In this document: positions 35,143-37,075 of the stretch, piece by piece
Position numbering within the stretch: the stretch's first letter is position 1
Layout of the letters: each line of letters starts with the position of its first letter
NCBI GenBank assembly: GCA_964478315.1
Contig: CAYZID010000001.1
Location: 14,619-78,618 of the forward strand
DNA length: 64,000 nt
From: an uncultured Myxococcales bacterium
GTDB lineage: Bacteria > Myxococcota_A > UBA9042 > PHBI01 > JAAZYN01
Direction: 5' to 3'
Program-made: the position numbers and the translations under genes
The notes under the pieces: model-generated
Seen by the model: the letters and a program-made list of their open reading frames with translations, nothing else
Told to the model about the DNA's origin: nothing
Database searches by the model: none

Positions 35143-35895
35143 CTAGGCCGCAGGCGCTGGCGCGTGGCTTGGGCCATCCGACCACATCGTCGGCATCTGA
35201 TCCCAGGTCCTGCCGTCGAGAAGGCGGCCTGCCTTCTTCTTGTTGCGCCCACCCCACTGCTTGAAGAAGAACGGGACGTCGGCTTCACGACACTGCCTGA
35301 GGATGTCCACGACCCACGCGGGATCCATCGGCCTTGGCCTGCGCCCGGACTCACCACCAACAATCACCCAGTGGATCCCGTCCAGAGGGAGCTTACGGAT
35401 CGGCCCAAGCAGGGGCTCAACCGACAGGAACCGGACGCTTGCACCCTCGACAGCCTGGAGGTCGGCAACTCGTGATGCACGCTTCTGATCTTCCACAGAG
35501 ACGCCCACCCAGACGTTGGTTGGCCACGGGAGTTCCTTCGCCAACGATCGCAGTCGGCCAGACCTCTTCGTGAGCACCTGGAACGTGTGCTGGTGCGCGC
35601 GGACCATGACGTCGAAGACCCGCTTGATGTAGCTGTCCGGAACCTCCTCATGGAAGAGGTCACTCATGGAGTTCACGAAGACGAGCCGTGGCTTGCGCCA
35701 CCTGAGAGGAAGCTCCAAGGCTTCGGGCACCAGCCGCAAGTCGAACCCCTGCTCGTAGGCGCTCCCCGGCACACCGCGGAACCGCTCAGCGAAGGCTTCC
35801 GCGTAGCAGTACTTGCACCCCGGCGAAACCTTCGTGCAACCGCGAACAGGGTTCCACGTCGCGTCCGTCCACTCGATGTCCGATTTGGCCGACAT
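35143..35895 (-). CDS. DUF5131 (phage Gp37/Gp68, three-Cys-motif) family protein
   Basis: N-terminal [27 protein letters not shown], C-x7-C-x2-C, as remembered for the Gp37/Gp68 family. ATG at 35895 with GGAGG upstream. AT-richer than the flanks. Confidence 0.6.
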   Translation of the reverse strand: [250 protein letters not shown]

Positions 35896-35950
35896 GCTGC
35901 CTCCCGCGCTTTCCCCTAGAATCGTAGCTGCCAACTGAACGAAAGTCCAG

Positions 35951-37075
35951 TTATTGTGGCGGGAAGGACACCAAAGTGCGATCCGCCATCGTTGGAGTCC
36001 CATTCCTCTTCGGCCTGCTGCCGGCCGGGGGGGCGCACGTGACCTCGCCGGCCGCCTCCATCTTCACCAGAACGGCCTTGTAGTTCTTCTTGACGTACGG
36101 CGTGCCGACGTGGTGTTCGCGGATGATGTCATCAACCATGACGGTCCTGCCAGCGAACTTGCTGGCAAGCACTCGACGAAGGTGATCCGTTGACCGCGAG
36201 TACGGGAACAGCAGGCTCAGTTGCGGGTCATCAACAGGCGTGTACTCGAACCTGGCAACGCCATCCTCAGACTTCTCGCTTTCTCGGTACATGATGTCCT
36301 TCATGATCGAGTAGCCAAGAACATGCTTGGACGCGAAGAACAGGTAGTGGCTGGTTCGCTTGCCCCCGTCCGCGCGGAAGCGGAACGGGAGAACGTACTC
36401 CGCATTGCCGCGAAGCAGCCTCTCGCCGAAGGCGTTCACGATGACGTACTCCCGTGCCGTTGGCTCAAGACCCTTGACCCTTGCACGGAGAGCATCCGCT
36501 TCATCCTCACCGAATAGTGCGTTCATGTGTTGTGCAACCAGCTCGTTGCCGAGCCCCATGTTGATGCGGTTGTAGTTGAAGAAGAAGATGAGGTCCGTTC
36601 CCCAGTCCTTCAACGCCGCGTCGAGCAGTCGCAACGACAGCCCCTTGTACCCCCATGGGTCAAAGAAGACGAGGCTCTTCGGGATGGCCGTCTCTTCCAA
36701 CCACCGAGTCATCTCTTCGCCGACTTCGAAGTTGCCAACCAACGGTTCATGCTTCAGCTGCTTGATCCCTGGGAGTTCTTCGATGGCAGCACAAAGTGAG
36801 TCGGCGCTTGCCTGGTCGGCGTCGTTGAAGATGGCCCAAAGGGTCTCGCGCAGCTTTGGGTCCTGCAGTGCCATCTCCAGCACAAGGATTGGTGTGGACT
36901 TCGAACCGTCCTTGTACCGGCCTGGCCCCGCGAACAGGTCGATGTACCCGATCACAGGTGCGCCCACCTTCACCAACATCACCCTTGCCCATGCATCGAA
37001 GTACTTGCTGACGATCGCAGCCTTGACCGCGGACGCACCAGTCTGCTCATCAAAGAAGCTTGTCCCCATGCTCAT
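35951..37075 (-). CDS. TcmP-like (three-Cys-motif partner) protein; N-terminal SAM-MTase-like motif I (IDLFAGPG)
   Basis: Immediately upstream of the DUF5131 gene on the same strand, the arrangement described for the TcmP family. YIDLFAGPGRY resembles methyltransferase motif I. Assignment from memory of the family definition, not from a search. Confidence 0.45.
   Translation of the reverse strand: MSMGTSFFDEQTGASAVKAAIVSKYFDAWARVMLVKVGAPVIGYIDLFAGPGRYKDGSKSTPILVLEMALQDPKLRETLWAIFNDADQASADSLCAAIEELPGIKQLKHEPLVGNFEVGEEMTRWLEETAIPKSLVFFDPWGYKGLSLRLLDAALKDWGTDLIFFFNYNRINMGLGNELVAQHMNALFGEDEADALRARVKGLEPTAREYVIVNAFGERLLRGNAEYVLPFRFRADGGKRTSHYLFFASKHVLGYSIMKDIMYRESEKSEDGVARFEYTPVDDPQLSLLFPYSRSTDHLRRVLASKFAGRTVMVDDIIREHHVGTPYVKKNYKAVLVKMEAAGEVTCAPPAGSRPKRNGTPTMADRTLVSFPPQ

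Follow-up and report, generated by a model that had tools for sequence, protein, structure and literature searches.

The DNA analysed here is a stretch of 64,000 nucleotides (hereafter the window) of contig CAYZID010000001.1 from an uncultured Myxococcales bacterium (assembly GCA_964478315.1, positions 14,619 to 78,618), and the subject of this work is a pair of closely spaced minus-strand genes within it: tcmP, whose product is TcmP (three-Cys-motif partner protein), and, downstream of it, a gene of the DUF5131 (Gp37/Gp68) family (Table 1). An earlier note, made from the sequence alone, had described the two as co-oriented neighbours, and both open reading frames (ORFs) were found on the minus strand where that note had placed them. 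The longer tcmP ORF (35951-37075, 374 aa, containing the string YIDLFAGPG) starts from an upstream ATG at 37075. AGGAG is located 6 nt ahead of the second ATG (37069), and the identical TcmP protein in public gene calls (P0001) is 372 aa long. The real start of the DUF5131 gene is the ATG at 35895, with GGGAGG ahead of it, and the stop is at 35143; a 286-aa ORF from 36003 overlaps tcmP and is unused by gene callers. The spacing between the two genes is 55 bp.

Profile hidden Markov model searches agree with the family assignments of the earlier note. The DUF5131 protein matches PF07505 far above the cutoff (E = 9e-101, 336.8 bits, cutoff 28.9; residues 5-235 aligned to profile positions 2-243 of 243) and PHROG 2045 (E = 5e-101). 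TcmP matches TIGR04474 (E = 9e-52, 176.6 bits, cutoff 53; residues 15-265 aligned to positions 3-262 of 263), and its residues 277-352 are covered by PF22560 ("GMT-like" winged helix). Among PADLOC profiles, the two adjoining genes match PDC-M30A (E = 7.5e-21) and PDC-M30B (E = 1.8e-110); the DUF5131 protein also matches PDC-M41B, and the match to PDC-M41A is marginal (E = 8.6e-4). The two strings quoted in the earlier note, YIDLFAGPG and a 27-residue cysteine segment of the DUF5131 protein, are both present; the cysteine spacing, given there as C-x7-C-x2-C, is in fact C20-x6-C27-x2-C30 (Cx6Cx2C). Both ORFs are intact and full-length, and every family-invariant residue is kept. By these sequence matches, the pair is a genuine member of the TcmP/DUF5131 gene-pair family and of the PADLOC candidate system PDC-M30.

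The AlphaFold2 model of the DUF5131 protein (pLDDT 84.8) is a β/α-barrel, that is, a predicted partial TIM-barrel of the radical S-adenosylmethionine (SAM) type, in which the cysteine triad sits on the loop after strand 1. C20, C27, C30 and a further cysteine, C202, are invariant in an alignment of 41 sequences; the SMSD, GVSxE and GGESG segments, located at predicted strand ends, are likewise invariant among these homologues. According to two structure-comparison methods, the closest solved relative of the fold is spore photoproduct lyase, which Foldseek ranked first, if weakly (E = 1e-3, TM 0.50). In line with this, RadicalSAM.org assigns DUF5131 to Megacluster-5-2, adjoining spore photoproduct lyase in 5-3. 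The likeness to the lyase (PDB 4fhc) is at the fold level only, with 9-12% identity and TM ~0.5. The DUF5131 protein is ~90 residues shorter, has the Cx6Cx2C cluster motif in place of the canonical Cx3Cx2C and is paired with TcmP, whereas the lyase has no methyltransferase partner; given the different cysteine motif and the lack of a sequence or profile match, DUF5131 does not belong to the spore photoproduct lyase family. PDB searches with the DUF5131 sequence and with its alignment profile retrieved no meaningful solved relative. The protein shares 65-82% identity with cross-phylum homologues, and the model leads us to predict that it is a small radical-SAM enzyme.

Two other radical-SAM groups are relevant for comparison. 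One is TIGR04471 (radical SAM mobile pair protein A), which the DUF5131 protein matches at E = 8.7e-24; scoring 84 bits where the cutoff is 355, it is a relative rather than a member. TIGR04471 is likewise defined as the radical-SAM half of a mobile gene pair, but its partner is not TcmP, and the function of that pair is not known either. The other group comprises prokaryotic viperins (pVips), to our knowledge the sole established radical-SAM antiviral effectors. They have a Cx3Cx2C motif and turn free nucleotides into chain terminators; in contrast to the DUF5131 protein they have no TcmP-like partner, and no sequence relationship between the two is detectable.

The model of TcmP (pLDDT 83.7) is a class I Rossmann methyltransferase of seven-strand topology, extended by a helical insertion and the C-terminal winged helix (PF22560). 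The proposal that YIDLFAGPG represents methyltransferase motif I is supported by this model, in which D44-L-F-A-G48-P-G50 comes after strand 1. Motif II (F81-N82-D83) lies at the end of strand 2, and D137-P138-W139-G140-Y141 occupies the motif IV position after strand 4; D44, G48, G50 and all residues of the latter two motifs are invariant in 40 sequences. A (D/N)P-aromatic catalytic motif holds this position in N6-adenine, N4-cytosine and N2-guanine methyltransferases. The catalytic core is the most conserved part of the protein (pairwise identity 0.78-0.83, against 0.53 for the moderately conserved winged helix). Taken together, the winged helix and the regions that might determine specificity have mean pairwise identities of 0.53-0.61 (0.51-0.61 over the non-catalytic regions) and are not hypervariable. 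The window TcmP shares 51-62% identity with cross-phylum homologues. Judging from the model, we predict that TcmP is a catalytically active class I enzyme that methylates exocyclic amines. Structure prediction was also a check on whether the two proteins might have an ordinary structural phage protein fold, and both models turned out to be enzyme folds.

The folds nearest to the TcmP model are Trm1 and RlmJ, which produce m2,2G26 in tRNA and m6A2030 in 23S rRNA, respectively. DPWGY of TcmP stands in place of DPFG in Trm1 and DPPY in RlmJ. Identity to these enzymes is ~10%, there is no Pfam or PDB sequence match, and TcmP differs from both in its helical insertion, winged helix and obligate linkage to a radical-SAM gene. 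As far as sequence goes, TcmP would thus at most work like RlmJ and Trm1 and is not a sequence-level member of either family. PDB searches with the TcmP sequence and its alignment profile gave no meaningful solved relative.

The linkage between the two genes is exceptionally regular. Among the best 80 TcmP loci, which come from different species, DUF5131 directly adjoins tcmP in 79. The gene is co-directional and downstream in 40 of them, convergent in 34, upstream in four and divergent in one. This adjacency, kept across orientations, argues for functional coupling together with co-transfer rather than mere co-transcription. Moreover, pairwise identities of TcmP and DUF5131 are correlated (r = 0.76, a value reached in 0 of 999 permutations). 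From locus to locus the flanks show for the most part no relationship (406 neighbours fall into 337 clusters), and no recurring third partner gene was seen near the pair in the neighbour survey, so that the pair appears as a self-contained mobile unit. The 150 top representatives of the family included no fusion of TcmP with DUF5131. Clustered at 50% identity, TcmP matches with E ≤ 1e-3 in a set of 1.84 billion proteins give 4,762 representatives, and a scan of one genome per species revealed at least 502 carrier species, from phyla that include Cyanobacteria, Myxococcota, Acidobacteriota, Planctomycetota, Chloroflexota, Poribacteria, Verrucomicrobia and Firmicutes. On plasmids the close TcmP subfamily is rare (10 of 72,556), and haloarchaeal plasmids are among those with homologues.

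An association with restriction-modification (R-M), defence and mobile loci had also been expected, and such contexts are indeed seen in the neighbourhood survey. One homologous pair lies where a recombinase/Bro-N/DUF927-primase element ends and borders on PglZ (BREX), another one beside an island of type I R-M, Abi_C and AAA_15 genes, a third one in an integrative and conjugative element (ICE), immediately after the coupling-protein gene, and a fourth one in a MazEF neighbourhood. The families seen most often right beside the pair are ResIII and helicases. In Sinorhizobium meliloti the pair adjoins the validated defence gene Hna and has been grouped with it as a putative transcription unit. 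In a Chloroflexi metagenome-assembled genome (L010, positions 5364-14993) a type I R-M operon contains two embedded cassettes, in the order hsdM, M78 peptidase, DUF4411, hsdS, tcmP, DUF5131, hsdR, with the start of tcmP overlapping the stop of hsdS. In Melittangium boletus (L007) a sequence that looks by eye like the T-arm and 3' end of a tRNA, GGGATTCGAACCCGTGGA (~9565-9595), is found in reverse orientation ~400 bp upstream of a stand-alone pair. It might be an old integration scar, but the tRNA-like reading was rejected, as ARAGORN detected no tRNA at this place and a look for flanking repeats gave nothing convincing.

In viruses the two genes are distributed differently. The close TcmP subfamily occurs in 5 of 50,697 records of isolated phages, all of them Gordonia phages (e.g. 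ThankyouJordi), where tcmP lies just downstream of the immunity repressor, with DUF5131 in convergent orientation; copies of this subfamily are mostly chromosomal. In IMG/VR, the pair is accompanied mainly by integrases, CI-like repressors, regulators, DNA methyltransferases and an invertase, corresponding to a lysogeny region. Viral-contig homologues thus adjoin integrases and repressors, not structural operons, the location that would have spoken for an ordinary structural role. The claim that the pair is conserved in phages needs correction, because isolated phages seldom carry the close TcmP subfamily.

By contrast, DUF5131 is far commoner in viruses, where it is present in 181 phage records and at no fewer than 593 IMG/VR loci. 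In the best 80 of the latter, a TcmP-superfamily gene adjoins DUF5131 in 38. These partners are either long (~370-430 aa) or short (~275-320 aa); DxFxGxG is kept in 32 of the 38 and DP[FWY]G in 22, divergent short as well as long partners among them. The dependency is therefore asymmetric, TcmP being nearly always found with DUF5131 and DUF5131 often without TcmP, which fits DUF5131 as the core activity and TcmP as an accessory or targeting step. The idea that paired DUF5131 proteins are minimal and solo phage versions carry insertions was ruled out, as many solo versions are 234-247 aa long. In two IMG/VR contigs (L111, 3915-7241, and L113, 9424-12750) tcmP is split after about residue 178 by a ~1.3-kb insertion with an ORF on the opposite strand, probably an insertion sequence (IS), and the downstream DUF5131 gene is intact; these are examples of inactivation of the pair.

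The base composition of the pair sets it apart from its surroundings. GC content is 0.588 for tcmP and 0.635 for the DUF5131 gene, compared with 0.701 for the window, and GC content at third codon positions (GC3) is 0.76 and 0.79, respectively, whereas adjacent genes range over 0.87-0.93 and host genes over 0.91-0.94. The block is thus AT-richer, as had been remarked, even within the element that carries it, and this foreign composition points to recent horizontal acquisition of the pair.

Table 1. Coordinates in the window of the tcmP-DUF5131 pair and of features of the element that carries it
Feature	Position	Strand	Description
tRNA-Thr(CGT)	29445-29516		gene detected; found by Rfam too
attL	29473..29516	plus	44-bp 3' half of tRNA-Thr(CGT), perfect direct repeat
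Fibre-like genes	29.8-35.05 kb		PKD, beta-helix and Laminin_G proteins
DUF5131 / Gp37-Gp68 gene	35143..35895	minus	250 aa; predicted radical-SAM enzyme
tcmP	35951..37069	minus	372-aa three-Cys-motif partner protein; public gene calls start at second ATG, 37069
Perfect 14-bp palindrome TCAGGCATGCCTGA	37105..37118		in 78-bp gap between Bro-N stop and tcmP start
Bro-N / anti-repressor-like gene	37148..38290	minus	PF02498, E 6e-25; PHROG anti-repressor Ant, E 2e-50
Baseplate_J	42615-44048		baseplate gene of the element
Baseplate protein	44058-45641		baseplate gene of the element
Tyrosine integrase	49211..50281	plus	PF00589, E 1e-18; adjoins attR
attR	50456..50499	plus	identical 44-bp copy of tRNA-Thr 3' half

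Because the 3' half of the tRNA-Thr gene is repeated perfectly and accompanied by an integrase, the pair can be placed in an integrated element of ~21 kb. Host genes surround the element, with Vut_1, CoaBC, UDG and sulfatase on one side and MlaC and PlsB on the other. Within it, the pair belongs to an accessory island between baseplate and fibre-like genes. This agrees with the position between baseplate and tail-fibre modules given in the earlier note, Baseplate_J being on one side and the PKD, beta-helix and Laminin_G proteins on the other. The carrier had been called a prophage, and the integrase and tRNA att repeats are consistent with this, but no capsid/head, portal, terminase, sheath or tube genes were recognised in the 21-kb element by Pfam and PHROGs. 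For several large ORFs of the element (598, 527, 396 and 378 aa) family matches are few or lacking, and an IMG/VR search found no close relatives of its PKD protein or its baseplate J protein. Loci L001 and L002, considered in looking for related elements with other cargo at this site, proved to be the window sequence itself. The carrier is a phage-derived integrated element, possibly a remnant, and not demonstrably a whole prophage; it could be either a prophage remnant or a satellite-like element with tail-tip genes only. In the Rfam search of the window only the tRNA was found.

The pair is part of a minus-strand string in which the Bro-N gene comes first and is followed by tcmP, DUF5131 and the fibre-like genes, the successive intervals being 78, 55 and 89 bp. 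Divergent from Bro-N and convergent with the baseplate module is a plus-strand cassette of four genes (38376-40075; 75, 90, 106 and 220 aa) for which neither Pfam nor PADLOC gave matches. The 220-aa protein, with a signal-like segment at its N terminus and hydrophobic ones at its C terminus, is possibly a membrane or superinfection-exclusion protein.

The palindrome ahead of tcmP was put forward in the earlier note as a candidate operator. It is indeed perfect, but the whole window contains 14 perfect 14-bp palindromes, and TCAGGCATGCCTGA is absent upstream of the homologues examined. In addition, tcmP overlaps the preceding hsdS in one homologous locus, and an own operator is therefore not generally needed by the family. 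An operator role of TCAGGCATGCCTGA is accordingly doubtful. A search for sigma-70-like promoters within 34.9-38.7 kb found none. A perfect 12-bp inverted repeat, GCCCCGCTGGCG ... CGCCAGCGGGGC, with a 7-nt spacer (38313-38343, flagged as terminator-like), sits in the 85 bp that separate the divergent starts of Bro-N (38290, minus) and the 75-aa gene (38376-38603, plus), the product of which looks by eye like a ribbon-helix-helix regulator, though it has no Pfam match. This repeat is a better operator candidate than the 14-bp palindrome for the Bro-N/tcmP/DUF5131 string.

As to what the pair does, the literature searched yielded only incidental mentions of both families and no functional study, in agreement with the earlier remark that no biochemical function had been shown. 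From what is observed, namely family membership, predicted folds, conserved motifs, adjacency, foreign composition and contexts that are frequently conflict-related, we infer a substrate, a reaction order, a product and a defence role. Our leading reading, which we hold tentatively and at slightly less than even chances, is that TcmP and DUF5131 make up a mobile two-enzyme SAM-dependent module for nucleic-acid modification, with element- or lysogen-encoded defence probably its use. The target of both SAM-dependent enzymes would be nucleic acid, most likely DNA. If the barrel model is right, DUF5131 would carry a [4Fe-4S] cluster on Cys20, Cys27 and Cys30 and reductively cleave SAM to give a 5'-deoxyadenosyl radical, and C202, likened to the conserved cysteine in spore photoproduct lyase, is a candidate hydrogen-atom or methyl relay. 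TcmP, as modelled, would bind nucleic acid via its winged helix and N-methylate an exocyclic amine. The same nucleotide may be acted on successively, by a radical step and an N-methylation step, to yield a modified base. Such a module would serve in inter-element conflict, here as protection against other phages that the lysogen or the element encodes, and the window copy would have been acquired recently as cargo by the phage-derived element integrated at tRNA-Thr.

Defence is ranked first because pairs are embedded in R-M operons, have Abi, BREX and Hna genes as neighbours and lie next to repressors. PDC systems were nominated from embedding in BREX, DISARM or type I R-M loci. The window pair resembles PDC-M30 in that both profiles are matched by adjacent genes, and a homologous pair is embedded between hsdS and hsdR, which is the PDC nomination criterion; it differs in that the window copy is not embedded in a known defence system and is found in an accessory island instead.

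A number of observations weigh against a two-enzyme defence module acting on DNA. PDC systems are bioinformatic candidates, called untested by their authors and unvalidated by others, and PADLOC gave no matches for the other accessory-island genes of the window. Many immediate neighbours of the pair are housekeeping genes, and they include no recurring third partner. On the enzymatic side, no methyltransferase family was matched in the Pfam search of TcmP at E ≤ 0.01, and the structural likenesses of both proteins are distant (9-13% identity, TM ~0.5). The nearest folds of TcmP are RNA methyltransferases, which makes RNA a live alternative target. The non-catalytic regions of TcmP are only moderately variable, which speaks against diversified recognition of the R-M type. 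Furthermore, DUF5131 has no TcmP-like neighbour in 42 of the 80 viral loci, nor in phiE125, Che9c, Atu_ph08 and prophiGD13-2; in Atu_ph08 and prophiGD13-2 it is located near DNA methylases, an HD hydrolase or a PAPS-reductase-like gene. Solo DUF5131 in early phage regions near DNA methylases fits phage self-modification at least as well as defence. As regards R-M proper, neither protein has a nuclease domain, and the pair is thus not a member of such systems. An R-M-like scheme in which a toxic DUF5131 would be restrained by TcmP methylation is disfavoured by the frequent occurrence of DUF5131 without TcmP, the reverse of what a toxic restriction component would lead one to expect.

The same chemistry might instead mark the DNA of the element or its host so that it escapes restriction or other DNA-targeting immunity on transfer, in the manner of the orphan methyltransferases of phages and ICEs, which serve as anti-restriction or epigenetic cargo. 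Such self-protection would explain the presence of phage DUF5131 genes in early or replication regions by DNA methyltransferases, an HD hydrolase and a PAPS-reductase-like gene, the recurrence of DNA methyltransferases beside the pair in viral contigs, the pair located right after the coupling-protein gene of an ICE and the retention of all catalytic methyltransferase motifs in TcmP. We nevertheless find it rather unlikely, since the inside of a type I R-M operon and the vicinity of Abi, BREX and Hna are typical places for defence genes, and the close TcmP subfamily is mostly chromosomal rather than carried by phages or plasmids. In addition, the Gordonia pair next to the immunity repressor would be expected to be expressed in the lysogen, whereas an anti-restriction gene should do its work when DNA enters. 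A shift of the target from DNA to tRNA or rRNA, with an RlmJ/Trm1-like TcmP and a DUF5131 enzyme resembling RlmN/Cfr or TYW1 altering translation, is unlikely in our estimate; the possible outcomes include protection of tRNA from anticodon nucleases and reprogramming or shutdown of translation during infection. Apart from Trm1 and RlmJ being the nearest TcmP folds, a universal target of this kind fits the strong cross-phylum conservation of DUF5131 (65-82%) and TcmP (51-62%) and the absence of hypervariability in the potential specificity regions. The tRNA-targeting PrrC is also among the genes embedded in type I R-M loci. DUF5131 genes of Mycobacterium abscessus prophages have, moreover, been labelled 'RNA methyltransferase' by annotators. 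However, the enzyme closest to DUF5131 by two methods and by RadicalSAM.org clustering, spore photoproduct lyase, acts on DNA, a winged helix such as that of TcmP is more typical of DNA binding, and the genomic associations are with DNA-directed systems.

The affinity of the DUF5131 fold to spore photoproduct lyase also raises the question of repair or tolerance of DNA damage, with DUF5131 as a lyase-like lesion reverser aided by TcmP and the pair as a fitness factor of mobile elements. In Mycobacterium tuberculosis, recA-recX is followed directly downstream by the pair Rv2734/Rv2735c; Rv2735c and recA are co-transcribed, and recA, recX, Rv2734 and Rv2735c form a mitomycin-C-induced cluster. 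The phiE125 gp37 has been annotated as similar to Rv2734, and the TcmP domain is carried by BCG_2748c, presumably the equivalent of Rv2735c to judge from gene numbering. Linkage to recA is nonetheless seen in a single lineage, and M. smegmatis has no insertion at the recA-recX site; a conserved and apparently active methyltransferase partner would be unexpected in direct lesion reversal, and the distribution of the pair is patchy, mobile and island-associated rather than core-genomic. We therefore regard a repair function as very unlikely. Least probable of all, and hardly to be expected, is that the window copy is inert cargo hitch-hiking in a decaying prophage remnant. The lack of recognisable head, terminase, portal, sheath and tube genes in the element, the failure to detect a sigma-70-like promoter nearby and the IS-disrupted tcmP copies elsewhere (L111 and L113) would be compatible with it, but both ORFs are intact and full-length with all invariant residues kept, each gene is preceded by a good ribosome-binding site, and the foreign composition suggests recent acquisition and not long decay.

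Returning to the preferred reading, a two-enzyme modification module used in defence, one bolder form of it is possible though doubtful, namely a radical-based immune or hypermodification system in which a lyase-like enzyme turns a 5'-deoxyadenosyl radical directly on DNA or on a conserved RNA and the winged-helix N-methyltransferase completes or directs the reaction. If this were true, the outcome, whether a modified base or damage to invader DNA, would be chemically undescribed in phage-host conflict, and DUF5131 would be the first radical-SAM immunity enzyme acting on a polynucleotide, as opposed to the free nucleotides used by viperins. The residues predicted to be key are C20, C27, C30 and C202 in DUF5131 and D44, D83, D137 and Y141 in TcmP. 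The window copy is an ordinary family member without new architecture, and the interest lies in the function of the family as a whole. With homologues in hundreds of species, M. tuberculosis included, the TcmP/DUF5131 pair represents a widespread "known unknown", named and listed as a defence candidate, and the proposed activity, if confirmed, would be an enzymatic logic new to nucleic-acid modification or to antiviral immunity.

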